Origin: Scyliorhinus canicula
Lineage: Eukaryota
Direction of reading: 5' to 3'
DNA: 64,000 bases
Assembly: GCF_902713615.1 (NCBI RefSeq)
Contig: NC_052158.1
Span: forward strand, 2,542,001-2,606,000
The translations under genes were made by a program, and so were the position numbers. A model generated the notes under the pieces. It was not told the DNA's origin and searched no databases. It worked only from the letters and a program-made list of their open reading frames with translations. This document shows, piece by piece, positions 32,761 through 60,225 of this stretch (positions are counted from its first letter, which is position 1; every line of letters starts with the position of its first letter).

Positions 32761-32879
32761 CTTTTGCCCTTCCACCCACCCGGCCCACCCTGTTTCCAAA
32801 CGGCCTACTAGGGCTGCAGAATCTCGGCCACACCACCAGTCCTTGGCCCCTGCGACCTCCTACTTTCTTCTGTCACTCC

Positions 32880-33508: not shown

Positions 33509-33820
33509 GGCGGCACAGCGGTTCGCACTGCTGCCAGGAACCAGGCTTCAATTCCAACCGTGGGTTACTGTCCGTGTCAGGTTTGCACGCTGCCTGCGTG
33601 GGTTTCCTCCGGTTGCTCCGGTTTCCTCCCACGGTCCAATGATGTGCATGTTAGGTGGATTGGCTGTGATCAATTGCTCTTTGGACATCCTAAAGATTGT
33701 CTAAATTGCCCAAGCCTAGGTGGGGCGGGGGGAGTGGACCTAGGTAGGGTGCTCTTTCATAGGGTTGGTGTAGACTCAATGGGCTGAATGGCCTCCTTCT
33801 ACACTGTAGAGATTCTATGA
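33509..33820 (+). mobile_element. HE1-type SINE
   Basis: Diverged copy with the same core and a CR1-like tail. Confidence 0.75.
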
Positions 33821-34184
33821 AGAGTGAGCACAATTTTAATCTCTAAAATATGGTCACCCACTAGCACCTGACAAGATGAGCCAGAATGTGCAATAAATGT
33901 AGCATTCCCACTCTCGGCTATCGTTCATAAATGCAACCTTGCGACGGGGACCCATGACCTTGTGCTTTTACTGCAATGAGACAAATCTACGGCAGGAAAA
34001 GTCTCCACTTGTCAGAACAGGCCCTTCGGCCCTCGATGTTGTGCTGAGCAATGATCACCCTACTCAAGTCAACGTATTCACCCTATACCAGTAACCCAAC
34101 GCCCCCCCCCCCCCATTATCCTTATAAAAAAAATAAAAATAAAAAATAATTTAAAAAAAAAAAATTTTTTTTTAATGACTTGAT

Positions 34185-34253
34185 CTTGGTGGGCCGCATA
34201 AAGACCTTTGGCGGGCCGCATGCGGCCCGCGGGCCGTAGTTTGCCCACCCCTG
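34185..34253. mobile_element. hAT (Charlie-like) transposon end
   Basis: gcggcccgcgggccgtagtttgcccacccctg is the reverse complement of a CAGGGGTGGGCAAAC-type terminus. Confidence 0.65.
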
Positions 34254-35054
34254 GAATAGGATGTCCAATGACAAATCTCTTCAAGCAAGTAGAGAAGTAT
34301 GGAAGGCAATGAAAAAACGCAAACGGAATGCTGGCCTTTAATTCGAGCAGAAAAAAATACACATTCGGGGATTTATCTTTCTGTTATAAAGCTTTGCTGA
34401 GACCCCATCTGTGTGTTCAGCTCTAGGCACCACACCTCAAGACATACATATTGGCCATGAACTGGTGCAACGCAGGTCTGTCGGAATTACACTGGAACTT
34501 TAAAGTAGTCCTTCTGTAGTGCACAACTTAAAACAAAAGAGACATTTTGTCCAAGGTTTACATCTTGCATTCACTGGCACAATTCGCGAGAATAACAGAA
34601 TCTACTTGCCAACCATTCAGCACTCCCTTCTCCCAGAGCAGAAACTTGCCCTGACATTGGACCTCTTCCGAAATGTCCTGCTGTGTGCAAGGCAAAAAAC
34701 TCTGATTTCAGGAAATGAAAGGTTATTTTTGTTTTTACAAGGACAATTTTGGTGCACGGCTTTTTCAATTCAGAGAGGTGGAACCAGGTTCAGTGTCAAA
34801 CAGGATCAGCTCCGAAATGTCTCCACCGAACCAGAAAATAATCTAACCAACAGATAAAAGAAAATTCCTGCGGACGCTAGACTCTGAAACAAGAAACGGA
34901 AAATACAGGACCATCTCAGCGGGTCTGGCAGGGTCTGTGGAGAGAGAAGGGAGCTCATGTATCGCGTCTGGAATGCTCTTTGTCAATGCTCTTTCTCGAA
35001 CTAACAGATATTCAGTCGGTGTGGTAAACATCGTGCTGTGCCCGGCAATGGCGG

Positions 35055-35341
35055 CACAGAAGCACAGTGGTTAGCACTGTTGCTTCACAGCGCCAGGGTC
35101 CCAGGTTCTATTCCCGGCTTGGGTCACTGTCTGTGCGGAGTCTGCACGTTCTCCCCGTGTCTGCGTGGGCTTCCTCCAGGTGCTCCGGTTTCCTCCCACA
35201 AGTCCTGAAAGCTTGTTAGGTGAACTGGACATTTTGAATTCTCCCTCAGTGTGCCCGAACAGGCGCCGGAATGTGCCGATTAGGGGCTTTTCACAGTAAC
35301 ATCATTGCCGTGTTAATGCAAGCCTACTTGTGACAATAAAG

Positions 35342-35376
<35 letters not shown>
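35055..35376 (+). mobile_element. tRNA SINE with (ATT)n tail
   Basis: Same head and core as the HE1-like copies, with the alternative tail and a long (ATT)n run. Confidence 0.85.
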
Positions 35377-35378
<2 letters not shown>

Positions 35379-35601
35379 ACAGAACTATTTAAGCGTGCCA
35401 CACACTTCCCCTCCATGACCATCTGGGCACAGCCAAGAGTGTTGAGAAACATGGTTGCTCAATTGGCTGAGTTGCCGGGGACAAATTGGCAGTCTGGTTA
35501 TACTGCCTGCTCCGTTCAAACCCATCGTCAAACTTCCCTCACCCCCAGCACAACCTCAGACAGCTTGGAGGGGGAGGGGTGGGCACAGTTGTCATTGGTT
35601 G

Positions 35602-36514
35602 TGTAGCCACCGAAGCTAGCCACTTCCCGACATAAAATGGAACATTGAGTTGCATGCAGGGAAAATTGGACAATGACAGAGAGGCAAGCAGGTTGCAGAA
35701 CCTCTCTGTGGATTCTGTCTGTGAAGAAACCAGACAGCATAGAAACTAACAAGCTGCGCATATTAATTGAGTGATTCCTGGGCACAATGGACACAATTAA
35801 GAATAACAAAGGCCAAGCTAGACTCTTCGGCGCCAGCAGGAGTCCCGGACAATAAGATACAAACAGCCCCAAGAACCGCCCAGTGATCGAGGAACAGCCC
35901 CGTTATTGGGGAAATTCAAATCAATCGATTGGGAAGAGACCCAATCGATTGCAAGTTTATAGAGAGTCCGCCCAGATGGCCGCGAAACCCAAAACAGTAT
36001 AAGACAGAGACCCCGACCCCAGCTCTCTCTCTAAGCCAGCCCTCCTCACTCTTAGCCGGCCCTCCCAGCAGAACACCTTTGCAGCAGCTCTCCAGGAACT
36101 TGCACGTGAGGAGGAGAGGCCTGGCCAATTGCTACACCGACAAGTAAGTGTCATACAATGCATGCTACGAGAGTAGACACTCCTGACCCCTTTAGCCCAC
36201 ACCAACTGGAAGCCTGCGGATCCAGGACAAAGCAAGAGGCCATTGTTCCCTGATCCGGCAGTTCCCTTATTCCAGATAAGTATGGGCCTAGTAGTGGTAG
36301 GAACAGTTTAGTCTTAGTATTATGTGCATGAGTAGTAAATAACTGTGTAATAATAAACGTGTCTTGTTTGAACTTACTAACTGGTGTATTGAGTAAGTGA
36401 TCTGAACTTGAACTTGAATCTTGTGGCGGTATCAAAGATACCTGGCGACTCCAGAGCTTAGGAATAAAACAGAGCCAATTGAGTGTAAAGCACACTCACC
36501 CAGAACGAGCAACA
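35602..36514 (+). mobile_element. Solo LTR (913 bp)
   Basis: TGT...ACA ends, perfect 4-bp TSD GTTG, TATA-like cagtataaga near 35996, AATAAA near 36352 and 36463. Confidence 0.85.
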
Positions 36515-36974
36515 GTTGGTGCCCAACAGCAAGTGTGTAAACAGTGGGACACTGCGCAAGAAATGGGTGAAGGGGAGGTTATGTGGCAAATGGCATTTAA
36601 AAGTGCTGCGTATCACTTGCTCGTGTTAAAAACAAAACGCCAAACCGAATACTTTCAATGCAGGACTTTATTAGCCTCTTAAACATATGTACTCAGATAA
36701 TCAGATGTAACCAGGAGAGTAAGAACACACTTCAGCATAACCATGTATAAAAAACATGCAAACTCACTTGATTAAAAACCCCTTATCGCAAAACCAACTG
36801 GGGTCCTTCAAAGCCAAGTAACCAACTTGTGCAATATATCTGTCCAAATGACAGCAAAATACTGACGTCATGTCAACACGTATTCAAGTTACTTACACTG
36901 GGGGTGTGTGTGTGGGCGAGTGGGGTGGGGGTAGTGGCGAGAGGAGAGGGGGAAACAACAGTTTGGGAAGGAAT

Positions 36975-38885
36975 TCAATCGACCTCCTCAATTGTTGGAC
37001 CACTGAAGGAATTTCCTTTGCCAGCCTGGTCTCCAAAGCCGACGGGCACATCGCCCTGGTATAGTTTAGCAAGAATGGGATTGCAGGCATTTTCCAGCTT
37101 CCTCAGTTGCTGCTCAAACTCATCCTTGTCTGCCTCCTGGTGCGCCTCCAGCCAGGATATAGCCTGGTTACACATTTCAATGACCTTCTGCTTGTCTTCC
37201 TCGCTGATCTTGTCTTTCATTTTCTCCTCCTCCACCGAACTCTTCATGTTGAAGGCGTACGACTCCAGGGAGTTCTTGGCTGCAATCAATTTGCACTGAT
37301 GGTCATCTTGGCCCTTGTACTTTTCTGCTTCCTGCACCATCCTCTCAATTTCCTCCTTGCTCAGCCGACCCTTGTCATTGGTGATGGTAATCTTGCTCTC
37401 TTTGCCGGTGCTCTTGTCCACGGCCGACACGTTCAGGATGCCGTTGGCATCAATGTCAAAGGTGACCTCGATCTGTGGTACTCCGCGTGGTGCAGGGGGA
37501 ATCCCACTGAGGTCAAATTTGCCCAGGAGGTTGTTGTCCTTGGTCATGGCTCTCTCTCCTTCATACACCTGAATCAGGACGCCTGGTTGACTGTCAGAAT
37601 ACGTGGTGAAGATCTGGGTCTGCTTGGTGGGAATGGTGGTGTTACGCTTGATGAGCGCGGTCATCACCCCGCCTGCTGTTTCAAGACCCAACGAGAGGGG
37701 AGCAACATCCAGGAGAAGTAAATCCTGGACATTCTCCGACTTATCCCCCATCAGAACAGCCGCTTGGACAGCCGCTCCATAGGCCACGGCTTCATCAGGA
37801 TTGATGCTCTTGTTCAGCTCTTTGCCGTTGAAGAAATCTTGCAGCAGTTTCTGGATCTTGGGGATGCGAGTGGAGCCCCCGACCAAGACCACATCGTGGA
37901 TCTCTGATTTGTCCAACTTCGCGTCTCTCAGAGCTTTCTCCACTGGTTCCAGAGTGCCTCTGAACAGGTCAGAATTCAGCTCCTCAAACCGAGCCCTGGT
38001 GATGGAGGTGTAAAAGTCTAAACTTTCAAACAGAGAGTCAATCTCAATACTGGCTTGGGTGCTGGAAGACAGGGTTCTCTTGGCTCTCTCGCAGGCTGTC
38101 CTCAGTCTCCTGACCGCCCTCTTGTTCTGACTGATGTCCTTCCTGTACTTACGCTTGAACTCCTCAATGAAATGATTGACCATGCGGTTATCAAAGTCCT
38201 CGCCTCCCAAGTGGGTGTCACCCGCTGTGGATTTCACTTCAAAGATCCCGTCGTCAATGGAGAGAACAGACACGTCGAAGGTGCCACCTCCCAAGTCAAA
38301 GATGAGAACATTGTGTTCCCCTCTGCCCTTCTTGTCCAGGCCGTAGGCAATGGCAGCTGCTGTTGGCTCATTGATGACACGGAGGACATTGAGGCCAGCG
38401 ATCACCCCGGCATCCTTGGTTGCCTGGCGCTGGGAGTCATTGAAGTAAGCAGGCACAGTGATGACAGCGTTGGTGACGGTGTGTCCCAGGTAGGCCTCAG
38501 CCGTCTCCTTCATCTTAGTCAGCACCATGGAGGAGATCTCCTCAGGGTTAAAGGTTTTATCCTCCCCCTTGTACTCGACCTTCACCTTGGGCTTCCCCGC
38601 GTGGTTCACCACCTCAAAGGGCCAGTGCTTCATGTCAGACTGGACCAGAGGGTCGTCAAACCTCCTCCCGATTAGCCTCTTGGCATCAAAGACTGTGTTC
38701 TGGGGATTGAGAGCCACCTGGTTCTTGGCAGCGTCTCCGATGAGTCTCTCAGTTTTGTTGAAGGCCACGTAGCTGGGGGTGGTGCGGTTGCCCTGGTCAT
38801 TGGCGATGATCTCCACCTTGCTCTGCTGGAAGACCCCCACGCAGGAGTAGGTGGTGCCCAGGTCGATGCCAATGGCTGCTGGCAT
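36975..38885 (-). CDS. hsp70: Heat shock 70 kDa protein, cytosolic, intronless (paralog 2; 636 aa)
   Basis: Uninterrupted ORF with all three HSP70 signatures and [14 protein letters not shown] at 36672-36667. Confidence 0.97.
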
Positions 38886-38984
38886 GGTTTTACAGGGTCC
38901 TTGTGTTGGGCCCTGTGGTGTGTGGGTGTCAAACTGTCCCAGCTTACGACGATGCCGGGGCTTCTGTCGCCGTTGGCGCCGGCC

Positions 38985-39175
38985 AGTTGCTTATTTACAG
39001 TCCGCCGGCGGAAATCCAGAACTGCAGCCAATGACAGGACGCCCCGCCCCCCGTCTCTCGAATGCGGAGACAGGCCCAATGCCGGGAGGGCCCAATCAGC
39101 GAGCGCGCAACACGGTTGCCTGGCCGACCAGGTAATAGCAACATTACGTCGAACAAAGGGCGCGCACGTGGGACC
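38985..39175 (-). promoter_or_regulatory. Promoter of HSP70 paralog 2
   Basis: TATA variant TGTAAATAA at 38999-38991, three CCAAT boxes, a GC box, E-box CACGTG near 39165, CpG rich. Confidence 0.7.
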
Positions 39176-40215
39176 CTTGTTGTCTCTTTGCACCTTTTAA
39201 TGTCCTGCCTGCGTCCAGCAAAGGTGCCTTACCTCCAATTCTAGCCCAAGTATCAACCATTCACATGGAAGAAGACGCTGATTCCTGGACGAAGTGGGGG
39301 GGAGGGGGTGGGGGGGGGGGGGGGTCTTAACACCAGGAAAGGCACACAAACACAGGCTGGGCCCGCTTGTATCCATTGAAGTTGAGAAGAGTGAGCAGTG
39401 ATATCCAGATTTCACTTGACTTAACAGAGTGGATGCTCCACTCCACCCACCACCCCCCCCCCCCCCCCCCACCCCTTGTGGGAGAGACCTGGGGATGGGA
39501 TTCTCCGGCCTTTCCGTCGCTTGTCAATGGGATTCCTCACTGAAGCCATCACACTCCGCGGGGAAACCTAAGGGCGGGGCTCCGCTGCCGGAGATTCCCG
39601 CCCCCAGCGAATGAGCGGAGAATTCCGGCCTCGAACTAAAGATCCCAGTTTAAAAATAAAGGACCTGCCATTTAGATTAGGAGAATGTTTTTTTTTCTCG
39701 CCGAAGGCCTGTGGTCTGTGAAATTCTCTCTGGCAAGGCGTGCCGCAATTATGAGTGGCATGGACAGAGTGGATAGTCAGACGCTTTTTGCCAGGGTGGA
39801 AAAGTCAATTACTAGCGGACATAGGTTTAAAGTGCGAAGGGCAAAGTTCAGAGGAGATGTGCGAGGGATGTTTTTTTACACAGAGGGTAGTGGGTGCCTG
39901 GAACTCGCTGCTGGGGGAGGTGGTGGAAGCAGATACGAAAGTGATATTTAAGGGGCATCTTGACAAAGACATGAATAGGATGGGAAAAGAGGGACAAATA
40001 AACTAATCTGTGCAGACCAGATACAATATGCAAAAGCCCAACATTGGAAATAACTCCCTAACACCCAAAATTTATTGAAGTTTTTACATATTGTACACTA
40101 TCATAGAATTTACAGTGCAGAGGACAGCACGGTGGCGCAGTGGTTAGCACTGCCCCTTTGGTGCTGAGGACCCTGGTTCGATCCCGGCCCTGGGTCACTG
40201 TCCGTGAGGAGTGTG

Positions 40216-43200
40216 TGATGCACTATCAATTGCGACAAGACGAGAGTAGAGAGTAATCAAAGCTTTATTACGCAGAGATGTGGAGCCTCCCGCAGCTGTT
40301 GCCGAAATGGCTGCAGCTCGGAGAGCCGACACATTTATACTCCGCCTACTGGGCGGAGCCAGCAGGGATCTACCCCCGTACCTGTAGTACAGGGGCCTTA
40401 CCATAATACCCTTGTATGCAGTATATAATACAACAGTGGTGACTGCCACATTCACCCCCTGTTAAAAAAAAGAGTCCAGCGGGGTGGTGGAAACTATTTA
40501 CATACAGGTTGTTAAAAAAATTTTGAAAAAGTTTACAAATTTAGACGGTTGGGCGCCTTGATCCGCCGTTGCGAGCGCCGCAGGTGTGTTGTTGATGCCG
40601 GCGTTGGCTCGATCATCGGTGACTCCGGGAGCGTGTCGACCTCATCTTCATCCATGGGTGGGACGAAGGGGAGGGTGGATCATCCTGGAGCGGGGGCTGT
40701 GGCGGGGTGCTCTGGGGGAAGGGAGGGTGGTGCCAGGGCAGAGGGGGCAGTGTGTAGGGACCCAGCAGGTGCCAGGTCCCAAAGGGAGACTGTGTCAGAG
40801 ACCCAGTCACTGTGGAAGTAAGCAGGGAAACTGAACAGAGCAAAGATGATGTTAAGGGCTTTGAAGACGGTGGCAGACGTCATGTCAGGGCATGGGATGG
40901 CGAAGGGGAATCTCGAGTACTCGTCAACCACATTGAGAAAATACGTGTTGCAGTCGGTGGAGGGGAGGGTCCCTTTGAAGTCCACGCTGAGGCGTTCAAA
41001 GGGGCGGGAGGCCTTCACCAGGCTTGCACAGTCTGGCCGGTAGAAGGGCGGTTTACACTCCGCACAGACCTGGCAGTCTCTGGTGATAGCCCTGACTTCC
41101 TCGATGGAGTGGGGCAGATTACCGGCCTTTATGAAGTGATAAAAGTGGGTGACCCCTGGGTAACAGAGATCGTTGTGCAGGGTGCGGAGTCGGTCCACTT
41201 GTGTGCTGGCAAATGTACCTCAGGATAGGGCAACGGGGGGGGGGGGGGGGGGGGGGGGGGGTCGTTGAGCTTAGCGGGGTGATACAAAATCCGTAATTGT
41301 AGGTGGAGAGCTCGATCCTCCACCTCAAGATTTTAGCATTTTTGATCTTGCCCCGCTGTGTGTTAAACATGAAGGCTACCGACCATTGGTCAGTGAGGAG
41401 AGTGAATCTCCTGCCGGCCAGGTAATGCCTCCAGTGCTGCACAGCTTCTACGATGGCTTGGGCCTCCTTTTCAACAGAGGAGTGCCAAATTTCGGAGGCA
41501 TGGAGGGTGGGAGAAAAGAATGCCACGGGTCTGCCTGCCTGGTTGAGGGTGGCGGCCAGAGCGACGTCTGATGCATCGCTCTTTACTTGGAATGGTAACG
41601 TCTCGTCGACCGTGTGCATCGCGGCCGTGGCGATGTCGGCCTTGATACGGTTCAAGGCCTGGTGAGCCTCGGCCGTCAGTGGGAAAGCAGTGGATTGAAT
41701 GAGTGGTCGGGCCTTGTCCGCATAGTTTGGGACCCATTGGCCGTAGTACAAAAAGAACCCCAGGGCATCGTTTGAGGGCCTTGGGGCAGTGGGGGAGGGA
41801 GAGTTCCATGAGGGGACACAGGCGATCGGGGTCGGACCCTAGAACTCCGTTCTGAACCACATAGCCGAGGATGGCTACAAATTTAGACGGTTGGGCGCCT
41901 TGATCCGCTGTTGCAAGCGCCGCAGGTGTGTTGTTGATACCGGCGTTGGCTCGATCATCAGTGACTCCGGGAGCGTGTCGACCTCATCTTCATCCATGGG
42001 TGGGATCAAGGGGACGGTGGATCATCCTGGAGCGGGGGAAGAGTGAATCTCCTGCAGGCCAGGTAATGCCTCCAGTGCTGCACAGCTTCTATGATGGCTT
42101 GAGCGTCCTTTTCAACAGAGGAGTGCCGAATTTCGGAGGCATGGAGGGTGGGAGAAAAGAATGAGCACACACTTCTCCTTGTTGGAGGTTAGGTTAAGGA
42201 ATTTGGCAGTGTGGAGGAATTTGGAAAGGTTAACGTCGTGGTCCTGCTAGTCGTGGCCACAGATGGTGACGTTGTCCAGGTACGGGAAAGTGGCCCGCAG
42301 TCTGTACCGTTCAACCATTCGGTCCATCTCCCGTTGGAAGACCGAGACCCCGTTAGTGACGCCAAAGGGAATCCTAAGGAAATGGCAAAGGTGGCCATCC
42401 GCTTCAAATGTGTGAGGGGAGCAAGATGGCAGCGCTCACCTAACCTGCACGAGTTGTGAGGGGAGCAAGATGGCGACGCCCACGGGCCGCACGAGGTCTG
42501 CGGGGAGGAAGATGGCGGCGCCGGGGGGTCGCACATGGGGGGCGCCGGGGCAACAACGGCAACCGAGTGGGCCTGGCACACAGCAGCAAAATGTCCTTTC
42601 TTACCGCAGGCCTTGCAGAGCGCGCTCCTTGCAGGTCAGCGTTGTCGGGGGTGCTTTGACTGTCCAGAGGAGTAGACCTTGGGTCCCCCGGAGTTGTGTG
42701 GTTGTCGCATGGCGCTGGCCTGGGGTTGGCTGGGGGGCGGTTGCTGATGGGGTAGGGCGTTCTCTGTCGGGGTCCACGATGTCCAGGAGTGGCAGGCCGC
42801 GCGGTGGGGGGCATACGCTTGAATATTGCGTGAGGCGACCATGAGCGAGAGTGCTAGTTTCTTGGTCGGCGCAAGGTCGAGGGTAGCCCCTTCTAAGAGT
42901 CGCTGGCGGATGTAGGCCGACTCTATGCCTGTAACAAGCGCGTCTCTAAGTAGCAAGTCTGAATGTTCAGAGGCTGAGACGGCCTGGCAATCGCAGTCTC
43001 ACTAGGAGGTGCAGGGCCAGAAATCCTCCACAGACTCACCGGGGAGTTGATGCCGCGGTGAGAGGAGGTGCCTGGCGTAGGTCTTGTTGGTCTGCTGCAT
43101 GTAGCTCTCCTTCAGTTGCGCCATGGCCTCAGCGTATGTCCGCGTGTCCCAGATGAGGGGGAAGATGTCTGAGCTCAGGCGCGTGTAGAGGATCTGGAGC

Positions 43201-43599
43201 TGATGTGCTTCTGAGGGTGGTTCAGTCGCAGATCCGATGTATGCCTCGAAGCAGGCTAGCCAATGTGCGGAAACTGACTTGGCATTGTCTGCTTAAGGGT
43301 GCAGCTGCAGGCGACCAGGCTTGATGCGGAGATCCATTGTTTTAAAATCTCTGCATAATTAACTGATGCACTATCAATGACGACGAGACGAGAGTAGAGA
43401 GTAATCGAGGCTTTATTAAGCAGAGATGTGTTGCCTCCTGCAGCTGTTGCCGAAATAGCTGCAGCTCGGAGAGCCCATACATTTATACTCCGCCTACTGG
43501 GCGGAGCCAGCAGGCAGGGATCTACCCCCGTACCTGTAATACAGGGACCTTACCGTAATACCCTCGTATGCAGTATATACAACAGTGGTGACTACCACA
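40216..43599 (-). mobile_element. Rearranged Gypsy LTR retrotransposon (LTRs 40216-40450 and 43364-43599) inserted in a SINE
   Basis: Paired LTRs, PPT next to 40450, TSD gtgtg/gtttg, gag (LRDALVTGI), RNase H (SDASD, EKEAQAIV) and integrase (HCC region, VVDEYSRF) remnants. Confidence 0.9.
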
Positions 43600-44898
43600 G
43601 TTTGCACATTCTCCCCTTGTCTGCGTAAGTTTCACCCCCACAATCTCAAATAGTGCAGGTTAGGTGGATTGCTAAATTGCCCATTAATTGGAAAAAATAT
43701 TTGGGTACTCAATTTATTCAAAAAAAAATTTACAGTGCAGAAGGAGGCCATTCAGCCCATTGAATCTGCACCAGCCCTTGGAAATAGCACCCTACTTAAA
43801 AGGTAATGCAGTAACCTCACCTAACCTTTTGGACACGAAGGGCAATTTATCATGGTCAATCCACCTAACCTGCACATCTTTGGACTGTGGAAGGAAACCA
43901 GAGCACCCGGAGGAAACCCACTCAGACACTGGGAAATCGTATAAACTCCACACAGTCACCACCCGAGGCCGGAATTGAACCCGGGTCCCTGACGCTGTGA
44001 GGCAGCAGTGCTGTGACCTCCGCCCCTCCCCCCCCCCTAATCCCCGAAGCCCCCTTCCTTCGTTGTTTCAGGGCCCTTTTCTGGGCCGTTCACTGTGCCC
44101 TGGGTAGTCATTTGTTATTTACAAGTGGGCGATGCCTCCCCTCCCCCTTTTATTGTTGGTCCCTCCCTCTTCATCCCGATACCCCGGAGACCGCCATTGA
44201 GGGGCACGGCTTCAACCTCACCCCCACAACCTTGGACATTGCCTCGGGGAAGGCTGTCCAGAACCCGACAGATCTGGAGCTTGCCCGAACATGTGGGTAT
44301 GATTGGCTGGGCCTCCCTGGCATCGTTCACACATATCCTCCACCACCTTACTCATTCTGGTTCTTGTCAAGTGCGATGAGGAGGTGGAGTTGACCCTGTA
44401 CAGTGCTTTGCTCCACAGTCCCTACCCTATTTCCACCCCGAGCTCTTCCTCCCAATTTTCCCCAAGTTTCGTCCAGCGGGAAGCACGTCCTTTCTAAAGG
44501 TCGTCTGTACACATCCCCACAGTGTGTCCAAAAACTTTAATGGGACTCTCCAGGAGTTGGAAATAGAAGCGCTCAGACAATACAGTACACGCATCCTCAT
44601 ACCATTTCCCAAAGGAAACATTCTAAACGTGGAATATTAGCAACAGGAGGAGCAACCTGTTGACTTCTGTTCAAAGTAAAGATGTGTGCACCCCTTTCCG
44701 ATCATCTTTAAACATTCTGCAACATCCAATTAGAAATGTAATTTATTCCGGAATTAATTGAACTGTATTGTTGCTCCCTCGGACGATTCGTAGAATCTTT
44801 GAAAGTTTATAACAGGGGCAGACCTCTCTTTTTTTTTATTCCAATGAATAAAAACAATTGCCCACATCCCATGAACAAATTAGAAAGCAATAAACTAT

Positions 44899-45234
44899 CT
44901 AGAATCTACAGTGCAAAAATAGGCTACTCGGCCCATCGCGTCTGCATCGGCCCTTGGAAAGAGCACCCTGCTTAAGCCCACACCTCCACCCTATCCCCAT
45001 GACACAGCAACCCCACCTATCCTTTTTGGACACTAAGGGAAATTGATCATGGCCAATCCACCTAACCCGCACATCTTTGGACTTGTGGGAGGAAAGCGGA
45101 GCACCCGGAGGAAACCCACGCACACACGGGGAGAACGTGCAGACTCCGCACAGACAGTGACCCAAGCCGGGAATCGAACCTGGGACCCTGGAGCTGTGAA
45201 GCAACAGTGCGAGTCACTGTGCTGCCATGCCACC
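44899..45234 (-). mobile_element. HE1-type SINE with CR1-like tail
   Basis: Complete head, core and tail. Confidence 0.85.
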
Positions 45235-45661
45235 CTATAGTTGGCTGTTGCAACAGTAATAATGGGAAGTGGTTGACAAATTAAGGTGGGCTGAATTGTT
45301 AATCTGTGCAACTAAACACGAATGTACCAGGAAGAAAGAAAAGAGAACGAGTATAAAACAAGTTAATTGAAAATTTCAGATTTAATTTCACACAATTAAA
45401 TAGTAGCACAAACAACATTCATTTATGGAAAATTGACAGAGTTAAAATATGTCCAGGCACCTCACAATAACTAAGAACGATAGCAAATATGCATCATATA
45501 CATAAAAAACATTTCCTTTCCTTCAAACTTAATGGAACAAAGGCACAGCAAGATGTTAAATAAGAACCTCACTTGTCCAACATTTTAGGAAAAATCAATG
45601 TCCATATAACCATTTGTGCAATATTTAATTCAAGGCATTAAACAAAGTTAATTCCGGCCTT

Positions 45662-47593
45662 TCAATCCACCTCCTCCACAGTGGGTCCTGTGGGATAGGC
45701 ATTCCCAGCCTGGGATCGGCAAGAGCTCCCAGCTGCTGCTGCTGCTCCTCCTTGGTACAGGTCGGCAATGATGGGATTGCAGAGTTTTTCCAGCTCTTTC
45801 AGCTGGAACTCAAACTCCTCCTTCTCTACCATCTGATTGTTCTCCAGCCACTGTATTGCCTGCTCACACTGCTCAATGATTTTCTTCTTATCTGCCTCAC
45901 TGATCTGATTCCTCACACTCTGCTCCTCCACCCAGCTCTTCATGTTGAAGGCGTATGACTCCAGGGAGTTCTTGGCTGCGATCCTCTGTCGCTGGACTTC
46001 ATCCTGGCTTTTGTACTTTTCTGCTTCCTGCACCATCCTCTCAATCTCCTCCTTGCTCAGCCGGCCCTTGTCGTTGCTGATGGTGATTTTGTTGGATTGG
46101 CCGGTGCTCTTGTCAACAGCAGAAACATTGAGGATGCCGTTGGCATCAATGTCAAAGGTGACCTCGATCTGTGGCACCCCACGGGGGGCAGGGGCAATGC
46201 CACTCAACTCAAATTTGCCCAGGAGGTTGTTGTCCTTGGTCATGGCTCTCTCTCCTTCGTACACCTGAATGAGGACCCCGGGCTGGTTCTCAGAGTAGGT
46301 GCTGAAGGTCTGGGTCTGCTTGGTGGGAATGGTGGTGTTACGCTTGATGAGTGTGGTCATCACCCCTCCTGCGGTCTCGAGACCCAGAGACAGGGCAGCG
46401 ACATCCAGGAGAAGTAAATCCTGGACATTCTCCGACTGATCCCCCATCAGAACAGCCGCTTGGACAGCCGCCCCATAGGCCACGGCTTCATCAGGATTGA
46501 TGCTCTTGTTCAGCTCTTTGCCGTTGAAGAAATCTTGCAGCAGTTTCTGGACCATGGGGATGCGAGTGGAGCCCCCGACCAAGACCACATCGTGGATGTG
46601 TGATTTCTCCATCTTGGCGTCTCTCAGAGCTTTCTCCACTGGTTCCAGAGTGCCTCTGAACAGGTCAGAATTCAGCTCCTCAAACCGAGCCCTGGTGATG
46701 GAGGTGTAAAAGTCTATGCCTTCAAACAGAGAGTCAATCTCAATACTGGCTTGGGTGCTGGAAGACAGGGTTCTCTTGGCTCTCTCGCAGGCTGTCCTCA
46801 GTCTCCTGACCGCCCTCTTGTTCTCACTGATGTCCTTCTTGCATTTACGCTTGAACTCCTCAATGAAGTGACTGACCATGCGGTTATCAAAGTCCTCTCC
46901 TCCCAAGTGGGTGTCACCCGCTGTGGATTTCACCTCAAAGATCCCGTCGTCAATGGAGAGAACAGACACGTCGAAGGTGCCACCTCCCAAGTCAAAGATG
47001 AGAACATTGTGTTCCCCTCTGCCCTTCTTGTCCAGGCCGTAGGCAATGGCAGCTGCTGTTGGCTCATTGATGACACGGAGGACATTGAGGCCAGCGATCA
47101 CCCCGGCATCCTTGGTTGCCTGGCGCTGGGAGTCATTGAAGTAAGCAGGCACAGTGATGACAGCGTTGGTGACGGTGTGTCCCAGGTAGGCCTCAGCCGT
47201 CTCCTTCATCTTAGTCAGCACCATGGAGGAGATCTCCTCAGGGTTAAAGGTTTTATCCTCCCCCTTGTACTCGACCTTCACCTTGGGCTTCCCCGCCTGG
47301 TTCACCACCTGGAAGGGCCAGTGCTTCATGTCAGACTGGACCAGCGGGTCGTCAAACCTCCTCCCGATGAGCCTCTTGGCATCAAAGATGGTGTTGGGTG
47401 GGTTGAGAGCCACCTGATTCTTGGCAGCGTCTCCGATGAGCCTCTCGGTGTCGTTGAAGGCCACGTAGCTGGGGGTGGTGCGGTTGCCCTGGTCATTGGC
47501 GATGATCTCCACCTTGCCGTGCTGGAAGACCCCCACGCAGGAGTAGGTGGTGCCCAGGTCAATGCCAATGGCTGTTCCTTTAGCTGGTGGCAT
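45662..47593 (-). CDS. hsp70: Heat shock 70 kDa protein, cytosolic, intronless (paralog 3; 643 aa, [14 protein letters not shown]...GPTVEEVD)
   Basis: HSP70 signatures and EEVD end. First ATG at 47593. TATAAA at 47750-47745. ATTAAA at 45386-45381 in an AT-rich 3' UTR. Confidence 0.97.
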
Positions 47594-47627
47594 CTTGAGT
47601 CCTGATCCAAGCCGAGTGAATTCAGTC

Positions 47628-47651
47628 GCTGCTGCTGCTGCTGCTGCTGCT
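47628..47651 (-). repeat. (CAG)n/(GCA)n trinucleotide run in the HSP70-3 5' UTR
   Basis: About 8 units between the TATA box and the ATG. Confidence 0.9.
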
Positions 47652-47739
47652 GTGAAGTTTTGCTGATGCAGTGATCCAGTTGCCACCTGCTCTGTGCTCC
47701 GGGCGGGAGGGTGATTGTGACTGGGAGCCGCTCAGCTCT

Positions 47740-48100
47740 TGTCCTTTATATCGGCTGAGAGCGGCCGAGTGGCGGCGCCCGGAGGCTGATTGACGGCGGC
47801 ACGGACCAATGGGGGCGGGGGAGGTGACGTCCCGCGGAATGTTCGGAAGCGGCGGCCAATGAGAGCGCGGGGCGGTGATGTCACCGCGGAATGTTGGCCA
47901 ATGAGAGCGCGGGGCGGTGATGTCACCGCGGAATGTTGGCCAATGAGAGCGCGGCGGGCGGGCGGCAGGCGGAGAGTTGGAGAGTTTTGTGGAAGGTTCG
48001 AGTCCCGGGAAGAAAGTTGTGGAAAGTTGCGGGAGGCGGGGACGGGAATGGACTGTGAGCAGCGGGAAGCGGCTGGAAGCGGGAAGGAGGAGCGGAGCAA
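47740..48100 (-). promoter_or_regulatory. Promoter of HSP70 paralog 3 with HSE-like elements and a tandem 42-bp module
   Basis: TATAAA; CCAAT at 47806, 47856, 47898 and 47940; gGAAtgTTCg at 47836-47845; gGAAggTTCg and GAAagTTGtgGAAagTTG at about 47990-48030. Confidence 0.85.
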
Positions 48101-48428
48101 AGGGGGCATTGTTGGTCAGCGCCGGCCAGGGTGATGCCAACCCTCCCGGACTGGCCGGGAGTCTCCCGGAATTGGGGAGAGATCTTGGGAGCAAATCCTG
48201 GAGAGGGGGAAGGAAACATGGAGCATTTAACAAGTTGATCTTTTTCATCACTTAACACATTCCAAATTTCTTTCTCAATTTTTGTTTTTAAGAATCCCTC
48301 TGTGCAGGAGGCCATTCAGCCCCAATTCTTTACTCCCCCAAGTCCCAATATGTCTGCGCCAATTGGATTAAACTCAGCTATTTAAGTGTAGTAAGGCAAA
48401 ATGTTTTTCTCTGCATACACACACAGAA

Positions 48429-48510: not shown

Positions 48511-50195
48511 TGTTTCCTCAGCAATTGCTGTGCATTTCTCAACCGGGGGACTGCCCGGTTTGGAGCAACGGAGGGGGGGGGGGGGGTGGAATGAGTTCCC
48601 CAGCACATCTTCGGGGCACCCCCAGTTATGCTGTCCCTAATCGCAGCTGTTATATGTATGGTAATTGTGTTATGGTAAAGGTAAAGCCGCTATAGTCCCA
48701 GATGACCAGAGGCTTCTTTCCCCCTTGAGGGGGGAGAGCTGACTGGTGGTGATTTAACCTGAGGATCACCACACCTCAGGAGAGGGGCAAGGTTGAGAAG
48801 GCTGGGCCGTCATGAATAACCTCGGCCGGTACGGGTTTTGAACCCACGCTGCTGGCATCTCTGCATCATAAACCAGCTGTCCAGCCAACACACATGCATC
48901 TCACTCAGCTAGAAATGTTATCTCTGCATATTTATCCATTCATATCAATAATTACACATAGGATTGAAAACTTTGAAATCAAACGAAGGTTTTATTCAAG
49001 TCGAAATGACTTGCTTCCCATTTACATATTGTAATAGTTTGAACAGGGAGACGACTTGCGGTCAATCAAAGTTCCCTTACCAGCCTCCCCGGACAGGCGC
49101 CGGAATGTGGCGACTAGGGGCTTTTCACAGTAACTTCATTGACGCCTACTCGTGACAATAAGCGATTTTCATTTCATTTCAAGTTGCAGACATAATCAGG
49201 TCCACAAATGGAGGCTAACATGTTTACTCAGCACCCAGCACAGGTTATATTGGGCCTGTGTTGTTCCTCGTGTCTTAATAAAGCTCGCAGTCTCAAGTGT
49301 GGAGAAGATGCTTTATTGTGGGTTCGTTCAGTTTCCAGAGCTCGACCTAGAACTACCTTCCAGTGCTAACTACCAGCTTTGCTTGCTGTGTGTCCTGCTT
49401 ACCAGCCCCCCTGCTGTGAAGAGTGTGTCCTCACTTCCTGTCCTGATCTATTTATATGGCTCTCCCGTGCTCCCTCTAGTGGTCGCTCAGTTGTGTTGCA
49501 CCTGGTTAACTTGTGATCACCACATCCCCCTTTTTCTCTTAACATATTTTCTGAACATCGTTAAAGAAAATTGTACATCCTGTCCCAGTGTATTTATAGC
49601 TCTCCCGCTCGTGTTTGCTCTGTTGTTTTTGTATCTGGTCAATCTACGATCACCACATCCCCCTCTTTCTCATTACATAGTTTCTGTACATCATTAAGGA
49701 AAATTATACAAAACAGTAACTTATGATATGCGTATCTATACAAGTGATGATGCTATTGCCTTGGTTAACAAAGCCAATGTATTTATATGTCCAAACTTAA
49801 TAAACACATTTATGAGTCCAAACTTGATGAATTTGTTCAGAGCTTTTTCTTTTTTTCTTTTTGTTGTTGATGACGTGGTGATATTGATATTGCAAGTCCG
49901 CTGTGAATGTTGTTGGTGTTCCTTGTTATCTTAAGTACCCAATGCGTCATCCCGAGGTGTTTGCATGGTCACATCACTGATGTTGACTGGCATGGACTTT
50001 TTTTTGTGCTTGTGGTGTTGATTTATTGTCTCATCCGCCTTGGATGCTGGTGTGCTTGCTTGTTCTGGAGCAGACGTGAGTTTGTGCGATTCGTTGTCAT
50101 CCCATGACATGTTTGTAGTCTTGTTATCGTTTTGCAGTGTGCTGTGGCATCGTCCATCATGTGCCAAGTAGTACCATTGTGTACAAGTCGTTGTT

Positions 50196-52100
50196 TCATT
50201 GCTGTTGTTTCTGTCGTTCCTGTTTTTTGTTGTTTCCGTTGCCGTACTTGTCGCTGTTTTTGTCGTTTCCGTCTTTGTTGTTGTCGCTATCTTTGCTCCT
50301 GACTTTGTTGTGTTTGTTGCCCTTCTTGTTGTTTCTGCCTCTGTCGTTGTCGCTATCTTTGTGCCTGACGTTGTTGTTTGTCTTGTTGCGCTTCATGTTG
50401 CTTTTATTCTTGCTGTTGTCGTTCTCGTTTCTGCTGTGCTTCTTGCTATTGTTGTTTGTCTTGTCGCGCTTCATGTTGCTTTTCTTCTTGCTGTTGTCGT
50501 TCTCGTTTCTGCTGTGCTTCTTGCTATTGTTGTTGGTCTTGTCGCGCTTCATGGTGTTTTTGTTCTTGCTGTGTTTCTTTTGACTTTTGTTTTTCTTGTT
50601 ATACTCTATGAGTGTCCCGAGTGGATAATTTGAGTCATTGAGCATTCCGTCTCGCGAGTGGTGCGAATGATCTGATGTTGCATCGGTGCAGGTGACATCA
50701 ATCAGTTGTGGAGAATTGGATTCCGCATCTTTGCTTTCTTGGTGCTCGTCTTCCGGAGTCAAAGTCTTCTTGATTACATTTGACGCGGTGTCTGTGGACT
50801 CTCGGCGCTCCTCTTCTGGAGTCCAAATCTGCATGATTTCAGTTGACGTGGTTTCTCTAGACTCTTGGTGCTCCGCTTCTGGAGTTAAAATCTTCATGAT
50901 TTCTGTTGATGTTATCTCACTGGACTCCAGGTGCTCCTCTTCTGGAGTCAAAATCTGCATGGTTTCTTTTTGTTTGATGTCTCTGGACTCCAGGTGCTCC
51001 TCTTCTGGAGTCAGAATCTGCATGGTTTCTTTCGGCATTGTCTGTGTGGACTCCAGGTGCTCCTCTTCTGGAGTCAAAATCTGCATGTTTTCTTTTGGCG
51101 TTGTCTCTCTGGGCTCCAGGTGCTCCTCTTCTGGAGTCAAAATCTGCATGTTTTCTTTCGGCATCGTCTCTCTGGACTGTTGGGTGGCCCGACTCTGTGC
51201 TTCTGTACAGACAAGCTGAGAACTGTCAGTCTCACTGTGATCCTGTACGTCGAGTGCGAGCACCTTGTTACTGTTTTCACTCTGTGCGTCGGTACAGACA
51301 AGCTGAGAACTGTCAGTCTCACTGTGATCCTGTACGTTGAGTGTGATCACCTTGTCACTGTCTTCGCATGCAGTGGGCAGAGGTGCATTGTCTTCTTCTT
51401 GTTCCTGTGAGCGTGTTGGACTTTCATAGTCCGCTCTTTCTTCTTGTTCCTGTGAGCTTGGTAGACTTTCATAGTCTGCTTGCGGTTGCTCAGGTACAGC
51501 GGGTTTACCTTCATGGTCTTGTTCATGCTTGGTGTCCGCCCGGGAGTGTTTGCTTGCATCCCTGTTGGCGTCTTTCATCACTCGCACTGTGGAGCCTGTC
51601 ATCGCTCGCTCCGTGGAGTCTTCCTGTGCTCTCTGTGTGGCGTCGTCTTCGTCTTGGGTATTGCTGTCATCCAATGTATCGACGAGCTGCCATGGCACCA
51701 TGGTGTTGGATTCATCCACCATGAGTAGAGTCGTGTTGAGCTTTGCAACGGTGTCGCTGATGCTGTGATCAGCATGTCCAAATAACTCCTCCATGTCTGA
51801 GTAGTATTCTTTGAAACCCATTTCATCTTCGTTGGCTTCTTCTACCACGAGTTGATTCGTGTTGAACTTTGCGACCGTGTCGCTGATGCTGTGATAAGCA
51901 TATCCGACTGACTCAGCTGTGTCTGAGTAGTATTCTCCGAAAACCAAATCATCCTGGTTGGATTCTTCTACCACGAGTTGATTCGTGTTGAACTTTGCGA
52001 CCGTGTCGCTGATGCTGTGATAAGCATATCCGACTGACTCAGCCATGTCTGAGTAGTATTCTTTGAAAACCAAATCATCTTGGTTGGATTCATCTACCAC
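50196..52100 (-). CDS. 634-codon open frame of tandem-repeat, acidic then Asn/Lys-rich protein in the LTR element (function unknown)
   Basis: Stop-free for 1.9 kb and built from 126-, 45-, 87-, 63- and 78-bp repeats. It appears to continue gag through frameshifts. Confidence 0.5.
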   Translation of the reverse strand: MVDESNQDDLVFKEYYSDMAESVGYAYHSISDTVAKFNTNQLVVEESNQDDLVFGEYYSDTAESVGYAYHSISDTVAKFNTNQLVVEEANEDEMGFKEYYSDMEELFGHADHSISDTVAKLNTTLLMVDESNTMVPWQLVDTLDDSNTQDEDDATQRAQEDSTERAMTGSTVRVMKDANRDASKHSRADTKHEQDHEGKPAVPEQPQADYESLPSSQEQEERADYESPTRSQEQEEDNAPLPTACEDSDKVITLNVQDHSETDSSQLVCTDAQSENSNKVLALDVQDHSETDSSQLVCTEAQSRATQQSRETMPKENMQILTPEEEHLEPRETTPKENMQILTPEEEHLESTQTMPKETMQILTPEEEHLESRDIKQKETMQILTPEEEHLESSEITSTEIMKILTPEAEHQESRETTSTEIMQIWTPEEERRESTDTASNVIKKTLTPEDEHQESKDAESNSPQLIDVTCTDATSDHSHHSRDGMLNDSNYPLGTLIEYNKKNKSQKKHSKNKNTMKRDKTNNNSKKHSRNENDNSKKKSNMKRDKTNNNSKKHSRNENDNSKNKSNMKRNKTNNNVRHKDSDNDRGRNNKKGNKHNKVRSKDSDNNKDGNDKNSDKYGNGNNKKQERQKQQQ

Positions 52101-52426
52101 GAGTTGGTTCGTGTTGTGCTTTCGACCGTGTCGCTGATGCTGTGATAAGCATATCCGACTGACCCAGTCAGGTCTGAGAGGTAATCGTCGAAAAACAAAT
52201 CATCTTTTGTTGTTTCGGAATTCTTTTTGTTCGCTTCACTGTGTGTGGTGAAGGCAGCTTTTTCCAAGGTTTTGTGCAAGTTGTTTTTAACTGTTGGTTT
52301 AAGTTCAGGCGTTTTTTGTGTTCTGAGGCAAGAAAATTTGGTTTTACCACTTTAAGTGTCTTGTTTTCAATTTTCGGGCATTTCCCTTTTAAGTGGGCGT
52401 GGTCAGGATTCTCAGACGTCATGACG

Positions 52427-53281
52427 TCACGCGTAGGAACGACTTGCACATGCGCAAATCGGCTTTCTTTCCTTGTGCGGTTCGGTGTCCATTGCGCATG
52501 CGCGGCTTGCGCATGCGCATGACGGTCCGCGACGAAGACTTTTTTTTGACTGCGCATGCGCGGCTTGCGCATGCGCATAACGACCCGCGACGCGATCTTT
52601 TGTAAACTGCGCATGCGCGACTTCCGGTCCCGGCGCATGCGCGACTTCCGGTTCCGGCGCATGCGCAACTTCCGGTTCCGGCGCATGCACAGACGCGATT
52701 TGTAGTTCTTTGCTTACCATAGACTGCAAAATGTGCTCCGACGCCATTTTATCGCGGATTTCAGCGTTTTTTCTTTCTAAAAGTTGTAAGTTACCTTTTC
52801 TTTCCGATCTGGACTGGATTTCAGCGTTTTGGCTTTGTGAAAAATTCATGTTATTTCTTCTTTTTGATCTGTACTGTGCATTCGCGATTTCCTGATCTTT
52901 TTGTGATTTTTTAAGTCTTGCATCACTCAGTCTCTGTGCAGGTTGGACTGTGAGCATGCCTTGCTGTTCAAATTTCTCACAGTACTCTTCAAATTTGTTT
53001 AGTAACGTTTGTAAGCTGTTCCTGTATTCACCTTTTGAGTGTTTAAATCCATTATACACTTTCCTATTGACAGGCCCTTCGATGAGAATTGCTATTTTAA
53101 TTTTGTCTGAGGCTTCTGCAACATCATTAGCTATGAGATAAAAATCGAACATTTGTTTAAACCTTTTCCAGACATTTCTTACATTACCAGTCGTGTCCAG
53201 CTGAGGTGGGTATCCATGCCACATCCTCGAATTAGCGATGTCTTCCCCAGTCAAATGTCCAGTAGGAGATTTCCATGCCAT
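52427..53281 (-). CDS. Gag-like ORF of the LTR element (frameshifted downstream)
   Basis: Starts just after the PBS. PPQLDTTGNVRNVWKRFKQMFDFYLIA...KIAIL...LLNKFEEYC resembles the Gypsy/Mag Gag N-terminus. Confidence 0.7.
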   Translation of the reverse strand: MAWKSPTGHLTGEDIANSRMWHGYPPQLDTTGNVRNVWKRFKQMFDFYLIANDVAEASDKIKIAILIEGPVNRKVYNGFKHSKGEYRNSLQTLLNKFEEYCEKFEQQGMLTVQPAQRLSDARLKKSQKDQEIANAQYRSKRRNNMNFSQSQNAEIQSRSERKGNLQLLERKNAEIRDKMASEHILQSMVSKELQIASVHAPEPEVAHAPEPEVAHAPGPEVAHAQFTKDRVAGRYAHAQAAHAQSKKSLRRGPSCACASRACAMDTEPHKERKPICACASRSYA

Positions 53282-54309
53282 TTTGTGCTTTCTGTATCTG
53301 CAGCTGAGTTGTCCTGTCGTAAGCGTCCTGAAATCACTGCTGGTACCATGTGTTGTTCCTCGTGTCTTAATAAAGCTCGCAGTCTCAAGTGTGGAGAAGA
53401 TGCTTTATTGTGGGTTCGTTCAGTTTCCAGAGCTCGACCTAGAACTACCTTCCAGTGCTAACTACCAGCTTTGCTTGCTGTGTGTCCTGCTTACCAGCCC
53501 CCCTGCTGTGAAGAGTGTGTCCTCACTTCCTGTCCTGATCTATTTATATGGCTCTCCCGTGCTCCCTCTAGTGGTCGCTCAGTTGTGTTGCATCTGGTTA
53601 ACTTGTGATCACCACATCCCCCTTTTTCTCTTAACATATTTTCTGAACATCGTTAAAGAAAATTGTACATCCTGTCCCAGTGTATTTATAGCTCTCCCGC
53701 TCGTGTTTGCTCTGTTGTTTTTGTATCTGGTCAATCTACGATCACCACAGGGCCCAGTGTTAATTTGCTGATGTAGCTCAGGGTGAGCGTCAGTGTGTGT
53801 GACACCACTCAATGTCTGTGTGTATGTACATTATGTATTTACGTATATCCTGTTTTTTTTATGCATGGAACAATCTATCTGGACTGTATGCAGAACAATG
53901 CTTTTCACTGTACCTCTGTACACATGACAATAAATCATATCCAATCCAAACCCAAAATGTGAATGCAGACAGCATAACCTACAAGGTACAGTCGAACATT
54001 GTGAAGGCCGTTCTGCTCGCCTGCTGCTGACACCAAGCACTGACACCCCAATACAGAACAGGAATTAGCCTCTGTAAATCTGGCCCACTCAACAGACTGC
54101 GCCCATTCCCTGCTAACCGGATCACTGTCAACTTCATTTCAGAATTACTTGAAACAAAATGGAATCAATTATCGACTAAGGTTAGAAATCAGGACAAGCG
54201 AAAAGCAGAAAGGATAGGATTTCTCATGTCTGCTATAACAACCCTAACATTTAAAAAAAGGTGTCAGGAAACTGAGGTCTTTGGCGAATAGAAGAACTGG
54301 AATGTAGTT

Positions 54310-55029: not shown

Positions 55030-55598
55030 GCGGCTGAGTGGGCGGCGCCCGGAGGCTGATTGACGGCGGCGCGGACCAATGAGGGCGCGCAATGAGGATG
55101 ATGACACCTCGGAATATTGGCCAATGAGAGCGCGGGGCGGTGATGTCACTGTGGAATGTTAGCCAATGAGAGCGCGAGGCTGTGATGTCACCGCGGAATG
55201 TTGGCCAATGAGAGCGCGGGGCGGTGATGTCACCGCGGAATGTTGGCCAATGAGAGCGCGGGGCGGTGATGTCACCGCGGAATGTTGGCCAATGAGAGCG
55301 CGGCGGGCGGGCGGCAGGCGGAGAGTTGGAGAGTTTTGTGGAAGGTTCGAGTCCCGGGAAGAAAGTTGTGGAAAGTTGCGGGAGGCGGGGACGGGAATGG
55401 ACTGTGAGCAGCGGGAAGCGGCTGGAGGCGGGAAGGAGGAGCGGAGCAAAGAGAACATTGTTGGTCAGCGCCAGCCAGGGTGATGCCAACCCTCCCGGAC
55501 TGGCCGGGAGTCTCCCGGAATTGGGAACAGATCTTGGGAGCAAATCCTGGAGAGGGGGAAGGAAACATGGAGCATTGAACAAGTTGATCTTTTTCATC
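55030..55598 (-). promoter_or_regulatory. Orphan duplicate of the HSP70-3 upstream promoter (no TATA box, no adjacent HSP70 CDS)
   Basis: Near-identical to about 47760-48250, with more 42-bp units. It abuts an old SINE instead of a gene. Confidence 0.85.
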
Positions 55599-55914
55599 TT
55601 TCAACACAACACCTTTGTTATAAAGTGATTGCATTTGGGGCCAAAGGGTATTTTGCTGCCAGTGATGAATAATTTCCATTTGCAAGATGATGGGCCCTGA
55701 GAATTGAAATGCTGTGTGACAGAGTGTGGGAGTGGGGTTCATAGGGGACAGGACATCTTGGATTAAAATTTGCAGCAATATATCTGTACGGAGTTGGCAA
55801 TTCCAGCTGCCAACACCTCGATGCCCCCCTGGCAACTGTATGAGACGGTGCCAGGCTGGTCATAATTTTGGTGTCAAACTTCGGGCCGAGATGATCCTCT
55901 GACACCTCTGTGTG

Positions 55915-59396: not shown

Positions 59397-60225
59397 CTCA
59401 CAACCCTGCTGTCCCCAAAGTCACACAATCCTGCTTTCCCCAAAGTCACACAACCCTGCTTTCCCCAAAGTCACACAACCCTGCTTTCCCCAAAGTCACA
59501 CAACCCTGCTGTCCCCAAAGTCACACAACCCTACTGTCCCCAAAGTCACACAACCCTGCTGTCCTCAAAGTCACACAACCCTACTGTCCCCAAAGTCACA
59601 CAACCCTGCTGTCCCCAAAGTCACACAACCCTACTGTCCCCAAAGTCACACAACCCTGCTGCCCCCAAAGTCACACAACCTTGCTGTCCCCAAAGTCACA
59701 CAACCCTGCTGTCCCCAAAGTCACACAACCCTGCTGTCCCCAAAGTCACACAACCTTGCTGTCCCCAAAGTCACACAACCCTGCTGTCCCCAAAGTCACA
59801 CAACCCTGCTGTCCCCAAAGTCACACAACCCTGCTTTCCCCAAAGTCACACAACCCTGCTTTCCCCAAAGTCACACAACCCTGCTCTCCCCAAAGTCACA
59901 CAACCTTGCTTTCCCCAAAGTCACACAACCCTGCTGTCCCCAAGTCACACAGCCTTGCTTTCCCCAGTCACGCAACCCTGCTGTCCCCAAAGTCACACAA
60001 CCCTGCTTTCCCCAAAGTCACACAACCCTGCTTTCCCCAAAGTCACACAACCCTGCTGTCCCCAAAGTCACACAACCCTGCTGTCCTCAAAGTCACACAA
60101 CCCTGCTTTCCCCAAAGTCACACAACCCTGCTGTCCCCAAAGTCTCACAACCCTGCTGTCCCCAAAGTCACACAACCCTGCTGTCCCAAAAGTCACACAA
60201 CCCTGCTGTCCCCAAAGCCAGATAA
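59397..60225. repeat. 25-bp minisatellite (caaccctgctgtccccaaagtcaca), roughly 33 units
   Basis: Directly visible. Confidence 0.95.

Follow-up and report, generated by a model that had tools for sequence, protein, structure and literature searches.

Host-factor motifs amplified in the gag linker of a pol-less shark Ty3/gypsy-type retroelement: a candidate intragenic regulatory cassette

The window, meaning the whole 64-kb stretch of DNA that was analysed, contains a Ty3/gypsy-type LTR retroelement inserted upstream of an HSP70 gene, and an array of transcription factor motifs (52415–52760) lies within the gag region of this element. The features are as follows, in window coordinates.

45662–47751, minus strand: neighbouring HSP70 gene with its TATA box, outside the cassette
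49257–53749, minus strand: pol-less Ty3/gypsy-type LTR retroelement, 4,493 bp, a recent insertion, with LTR pair and target duplication
49257–49657, minus strand: 3' LTR
49658–49672, minus strand: polypurine tract
50196–52351, minus strand: acidic repeat-rich tail with units of 126, 87, 45, 63 and 78 bp
52386–52402, minus strand: GC-box/KLF-like word CCACGCCC and, after it, TATA-like TTAAAAG; 38 of 40 copies keep this stretch intact
52415–52429, no strand assigned: CRE TGACGTCA inside a 14-bp palindrome (52415–52428), the CRE present in 38 of 40 copies
52446–52455, minus strand: knuckle-proximal NRF1-like site with one mismatch, at the position of the site kept in all relatives
52493–52623, minus strand: 58-bp unit, 2.3 copies, with paired NRF1 palindromes; the frame of the window copy breaks at 52540–52547
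52609–52690, minus strand: 24-bp unit, 3.3 copies, with an NRF1 palindrome and ETS site CCGGAAGT, reading A-H-A-P-E-P-E-V
52742–52750, minus strand: YY1-like AAAATGGCG on the sense strand of the element, reading K-M-A, in 40 of 40 copies
52970–53281, minus strand: gag start and N-terminal part of the capsid, the sole stretch with homologues; the C-terminal part of the capsid is missing
53331–53348, minus strand: primer-binding site, beginning TGG and abutting the inner end of the 5' LTR
53349–53749, minus strand: 5' LTR with TATA-like words at 53690 and 53548, AATAAA at 53409, a CTCF-like word at 53574, an ETS-like word at 53532, and 10 CpG

The names of the LTR motifs (TATA-like, CTCF-like, ETS-like) are consensus assignments that we assume, and the primer-binding site is presumably of the tRNA-Leu type. 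A motif scan of the 5' LTR found no NRF1 site.

The element has the paired LTRs (401 bp, TG...CA ends, one mismatch between the two), target duplication (GGGCC, 5 bp, at 49252–49256 and 53750–53754), primer-binding site, and polypurine tract of a Ty3/gypsy element, and since no Pfam pol domain is found in either long ORF it is without the pol of its own that defines an autonomous one. The LTRs of the window copy owe their length to about 132 bp that are duplicated internally; among 38 sister copies, the aligned part of the LTR pair measures 256–285 bp in 36. A library search with gag returned 230 matches at E ≤ 0.001, nearly all around query residues 25–104; about 80 N-terminal residues align to Ty3/gypsy proteins with a best E of 9e-11, and pol domains are present in 13 of 14 long matches scanned, in the gypsy order (PR-RT-RH-IN) where complete. 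A word-index search revealed no longer homologues of the window ORF. In a tree of the N-terminal 88 residues the window Gag forms a long branch apart from its same-genome relatives, a placement that is unreliable. The array itself is located in the linker, with the cut-down capsid region on one side and the remnant of a zinc knuckle on the other.

The insertion is set among at least six clustered HSP70 genes, of which the window has three (30841–47731) and G000:C13:2607824–2669959 another three; the downstream three are recent duplicates of the third HSP70 of the window, one of them inverted. As stated in the preliminary description, the array is about 4.7 kb upstream of HSP70, with the HSP70 TATA box at 47745–47751. 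Three sister HSP70 units downstream, 97.6–98.6% identical, are without the insertion (empty site). Empty-site joins in contigs of six of seven runs do not establish that the insertion is polymorphic, as the sister HSP70 units share the empty site. A second HSP70 upstream region at 55163–55608, 93.6% identical to 47806–48259 with no adjacent HSP70 ORF, holds a 42-bp CCAAT-containing unit in 4.9 copies; this second region recurs in the downstream sister units. Elsewhere in the window, 2.6 copies of a 42-bp unit with YY1-like CAAGATGGCG are found at 42410–42522, close to a gypsy-type RNase H frame that has decayed (41119–41838), and a 25-bp minisatellite of 33 copies, open in several frames, occupies 59399–60217.

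Exact scanning of the 64 kb locates the NRF1 palindrome GCGCATGCGC seven times in the array (52494, 52509, 52552, 52567, 52609, 52633, and 52657) and only once outside it, at 14661; the ETS/GABP word ACTTCCGG three times (52620, 52644, and 52668) and nowhere else; the CRE at 52422, its single other occurrence being at 36863; and the YY1 word CGCCATTTT at 52742. The motif list and positions of the preliminary description (NRF1 seven times, ETS three times, one CRE, one YY1) are thereby confirmed, the words having been matched exactly and their factor labels being consensus sites that we take to apply. The four motif classes occur together in none of 3,000 dinucleotide shuffles searched with the exact motifs, a shuffled control having been among the checks proposed. 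The array is also, as described, CpG-rich within an AT-richer element, with a GC content of 0.575 compared with 0.443 for the remaining element; its 346 bp contain 49 CpG at an observed/expected ratio of 1.71, compared with 0.67 for the remainder, and exceed the CpG-island thresholds applied here (at least 200 bp, GC >0.5, CpG observed/expected >0.6).

The motif counts nevertheless overstate the evidence, because the 58-bp and 24-bp tandem units (the latter array at 52609–52688) multiply the NRF1 and ETS sites, and the seven NRF1 sites come from about two units. The claim that the array is written inside the gag frame holds in the window copy for five of the seven NRF1 sites, the other two being out of frame because of a break at the homopolymer run 52540–52547 and a stop at 52427; the frame is broken again near 52122, in an acidic tail that runs on from gag without interruption in many sister copies. 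The YY1-like word follows for the most part from encoding K-M-A (its null expectation in the single element is 1.0) and is by itself weak evidence. When the peptide is held fixed in the single element, neither the CRE (p 0.16), nor the TTAAA word (p 0.11), nor the YY1-like word (p 1.0) is significant. In the sense direction the array is closed by the GC-box-like and TATA-like words at 52386–52402, a pair absent from the earlier motif list, which occupy the H-L-K codons of the zinc knuckle that is without its cysteines.

In the single 4.22-Gb genome searched, all 40 scored DNA matches to the element are at least 99% identical, and all 150 protein matches listed are at 97–100%. NRF1+ETS units number 914 genome-wide (control 0); with about 1.8 units in each copy, this points to a family of roughly 400–500 copies. 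Forty sister copies, 20 near the top and 20 near the bottom of the 150 listed, were taken regardless of the array; each carries four to nine NRF1 sites and one to four ETS sites, and the median LTR-pair identity is 99.7% (38 measurable). The gag frame is open through the array in 26 of the 40, and 15 have an ORF of at least 900 residues comprising gag, array, and repeats as one frame. The family is transcribed mostly in the sense direction across the array: in 2,259 reads from about 1% of a 3'-primed single-cell poly(A) run, array depth is 36–123 in sense and 3–11 in antisense, the reads being assigned at the level of the family rather than the locus and their orientation following the convention of the mapping tool. 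The main read peak terminates in an A-rich tract near 52861, the pattern that internal priming predicts, and no read-start pile-up is seen in this library type, which cannot show 5' ends.

A search with a library gag yielded 133 scored same-genome matches, from which the 30 best and 20 chosen for few stops and for an alignment ending before the knuckle were examined. The 20 chosen loci and two of the 30 best make up one group; it comprises several families, some of whose members are gag-pol elements in a single frame. The protein closest to a relative among named proteins is from Scyliorhinus canicula (72%). The linker from capsid to knuckle carries an NRF1 site, exact or decayed, at all 22 loci (the exact 10-mer in 11), and at 21 of them the site is 57–69 bp ahead of the knuckle His. 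The spacing of the palindrome to a CRE-like site and to a CCC-CAY-TTA-AAR word is nearly constant. Tallied on both strands and halved, exact 10-mers number 21 in 4,950 bp of linker, compared with none in 12,228 bp of capsid and none in 33,000 bp downstream. The array of the window copy sits at this same position, between the truncated capsid and a cysteine-less knuckle that keeps the DNA words; the cassette has thus been kept after loss of pol, of the C-terminal part of the capsid, and of the knuckle cysteines. The ETS site is present in four of the 22 linkers and exact GCCATnTT in only three. An older sister group of 28 loci (L031–L058) is without NRF1 and has the YY1-like GCCATnTT in the linker of 21 loci and in no capsid (31 words in 5,628 bp of linker, compared with none in 13,428 bp). 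Three further pol-less lineages (L061, L072, and L132) carry similar acidic repeat tails; L072 retains a full capsid and knuckle, and the other pol-less lineages have the truncation of the window element. To judge from these sequences, the pol-less lineages suggest stepwise reduction around a retained linker.

Comparison of codons indicates that the constraint acts on nucleic acid rather than on peptide. Families A, B, C, and D share 43–53% capsid amino acid identity, and their fourfold third positions agree at 16–40%, near saturation. Within the A-H-A peptide, 50 of 56 Ala codons are GCG, compared with 41 of 126 other linker Ala codons, and all 28 His codons are CAT, compared with 57 of 113 elsewhere in the linker. 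The base before the site is a pyrimidine in 26 of 26 cases and the base after it is C in 23 of 26, although the following residue varies (R and H in relatives, Q and P in the window). Of the 3,379 synonymous spellings counted genome-wide ahead of the knuckle signature, 2,515 match the NRF1 site exactly (controls 0 and 1), the signature alone, in a differently worded pattern, having 5,352 matches. The knuckle Leu codon is TTA in 20 of the 20 relatives with Leu at that position (background 17%), and C is the last base of the codon ahead of the knuckle His at all 22 loci, which places a GC-box-like word beside the TATA-like one. The ETS site occurs in different reading frames, reading P-G-S in family A and P-E-V in the window family. 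The DNA-level constraint is strong for NRF1, present for ETS in two lineages in different frames, and weak for CRE and YY1 once the peptide is fixed. Motifs not conserved past the amino acid repeat had been named beforehand as the outcome that would count against a regulatory function; the silent positions are instead fixed across deep families. As the copies share ancestry, these numbers represent some five to eight independent lineages rather than thousands of events, all in one genome. Within these bounds, an observation made on one copy appears to extend to a clade-wide cassette conserved at silent sites.

The same palindrome is abundant outside these elements, with 166,878 sites genome-wide; the reversed control gives 143 but has more CpGs, and a uniform expectation is about 2,000 by arithmetic. 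This abundance makes any one occurrence less surprising. In a sample of 20 sites from the start of C1, one belongs to a gypsy relative and most others to GC-rich non-coding repeats; the loci concerned are L133–L151 and, in the window, 14460–14900. These repeats are about 500–700 bp long, many with a CRE next to the palindrome and with short inverted termini, and probably represent non-autonomous DNA-transposon-like families. GC-rich non-coding repeats without gag homology thus carry the same NRF1+CRE pair, and the use of this pair by unrelated mobile-looking elements supports a reading at the level of DNA. Capture of the linker from such a repeat (14441–14920) was tried and rejected, since the one repeat copy compared gave no alignment to any linker.

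The explanation that we consider probable is that the array is the amplified form of a gypsy-clade DNA cassette in the gag linker, which would promote the element's own transcription from inside the gene, either as an enhancer or as an internal promoter. The internal promoter or enhancer mimic of the preliminary description is thus retained in part: conservation at silent sites makes a cis-regulatory cassette the best reading, and its activity is a prediction. The host genome has an NRF1 gene, and host NRF1, CREB/ATF, ETS, and SP/KLF factors would bind when the CpGs are unmethylated, opening chromatin about 0.8–1.1 kb downstream of a CpG-poor TATA-type LTR and raising the output of genomic RNA, most usefully in the germline. 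With less assurance, the TTAAAAG word may launch a second sense transcript near 52355–52365. The linker would tolerate almost any peptide, so that sites could be written there free of cost, and tandem slippage would later have multiplied them in the window lineage. That the cassette drives the downstream repeat ORF, as first suggested, is possible but unnecessary, because many copies read gag, array, and repeats as a single frame.

The alternative with the best standing, which we regard as improbable though deserving of serious attention, is that the conserved words act in RNA, as GC-rich palindromes for dimerisation of genomic RNA or for its packaging by helper Gag. Packaging and dimer signals extend into gag in retroviruses and in Ty1. 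The two best-kept words are indeed palindromes (10–12 and 14 nt), and they are retained in pol-less, helper-dependent families, in which a packaging signal must stay in cis. The window array also folds better than its shuffles (z -2.48), because the palindromes pair with each other, and the CRE-region palindrome of family B contains a compensatory change of T-A to C-G (three of 12 rows, one event). However, no common fold emerges from 12 linkers (z -1.48 to +1.11, alignment energy -4.3), an autonomous-type linker gives z -0.91, and the NRF1 core is without double-sided changes. A conserved stem-loop exposing the palindrome with covariation is accordingly not seen among the 12 linkers beyond this one compensatory event, while unstructured intermolecular pairing via the palindromes is possible. 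The ETS, GC-box, and YY1-like words are not palindromic, and the NRF1+CRE pair also occurs in the non-coding repeats without gag.

It is decidedly less likely that the cassette is mainly a methylation shield or silencing sensor mimicking a CpG island, or a YY1-type repressive module, rather than an activator. The high CpG ratio of the array and a CpG peak at the linker of three relatives (observed/expected 1.1–1.4) would fit such a role, and YY1 is reported to activate and also to silence LTR elements (PMC10968565). No protection is visible in the CpG transitions of the 40 young copies, a comparison of low power: the array has 27 in 3,551, and other parts of the element range from 4 in 1,040 to 13 in 734 (0.4–1.8%), so that the earlier suggestion of resistance to silencing finds array CpG loss within the range of the rest. 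Motif CpGs are lost in 10 of 1,485 cases and other array CpGs in 17 of 2,066, again with low power, and NRF1 sites in older copies show clear CpG decay.

That the motifs are a by-product, either of an Ala-His-Ala peptide needed by Gag or of neutral slippage in a GC-rich linker in a genome where the 10-mer is already common, is very unlikely. The sites do stand in the A-H-A frame wherever the frame is intact, tandem duplication accounts for their high and variable number, and the genome-wide total shows how common the word is. The codon comparisons, with silent positions fixed at the site and others near saturation, nevertheless appear largely to refute this explanation; moreover, the peptide footprint is missing, in any frame, from all 150 library homologues listed (among nine further matches, the catshark protein contains two such footprints and an oyster protein contains A-H-A-V), and the linker does not align to the GC-rich repeat compared. 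Finally, co-option of the array as an enhancer of the adjacent HSP70 gene, which it precedes on the same strand, can hardly be the explanation, given the very recent insertion, the empty site in three sister units, and the presence of the array as standard family content in 40 of 40 copies; the link is incidental, the insertion being a recent accident in one paralogue, and a local effect on HSP70 is possible, though not the reason for the array to exist.

A bolder extension of the regulatory reading is offered as a speculation that we ourselves think rather doubtful. In this clade, the codons that run up to the first zinc knuckle of Gag may spell out an entire proximal promoter of the housekeeping type, with NRF1, CRE, GC box, and TATA-like word, and a second sense transcript starting from it would make pol, or the acidic tail in pol-less families, separately from Gag. 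This would be a germline switch gated by CpG methylation, a vertebrate counterpart of Ty1i, and together with the GC-rich repeats it would load the genome with about 167,000 NRF1 sites as factor sinks and latent promoters.

If the regulatory reading is true, the clade provides a dual-coded regulatory cassette that exists in thousands of natural copies and several deep lineages within one vertebrate genome, and a clean system for studying how, outside mammals, retrotransposons exploit CpG-island factors and evade or sense methylation. Exact predictions would follow as to factor identity, spacing, and a start near 52355–52365. The case also serves as a caution that annotation centred on LTRs overlooks internal regulatory DNA.

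Among known systems, the relatives are presumably single-ORF Ty3/gypsy elements of the K02A2.6-like or Mag type, a clade label that we assume. They share with this type the homology of the capsid N-terminal part, a two-knuckle Gag, PR-RT-RH-IN, and a 5-bp duplication; the library homologues of the type are without the motif footprint, and the window family differs from it in being without pol, half of the capsid, and the knuckle cysteines and in having added a long acidic repeat tail. In the openly available literature searched, no account of a comparable cassette in the gag of fish or shark gypsy elements was found, and a term search of the LTR-factor review returned no occurrence of NRF1 or GABP (PMC10968565). 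In mouse germ cells NRF1 activates unmethylated IAP and L1 in a methylation-sensitive manner, binding at the transposon promoters, whereas the shark sites are inside gag and none is in the LTR (PMC12420836). The Oikopleura Tor elements have an internal promoter, Penv, located in pol in some families, that drives env; the likeness is that of an LTR element with a second promoter inside, here a predicted one, and the shark family is without env or pol (PMC4402516). The intragenic AP-1 enhancer of HIV-1 pol, which raises polymerase recruitment at the LTR, likewise places enhancer sites, here candidate ones, within coding sequence, but in pol, with inducible AP-1, in an exogenous virus, and without tandem amplification (PMC3079759). 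In Ty1, sites for host factors (Ste12, Tec1, Tye7, Mcm1, Tea1, and Rap1) lie inside GAG, and an internal start about 1 kb into the element, Ty1i, leads to a truncated Gag product (10.1101/176248). Ty1 is a copia-type element with yeast factors and a function that has been shown, whereas the shark cassette is gypsy-type, uses a vertebrate CpG-island vocabulary, and has a predicted function; like Ty1, it has its factor sites within the ORF for gag, at a point past the start in the LTR (10.1101/176248).
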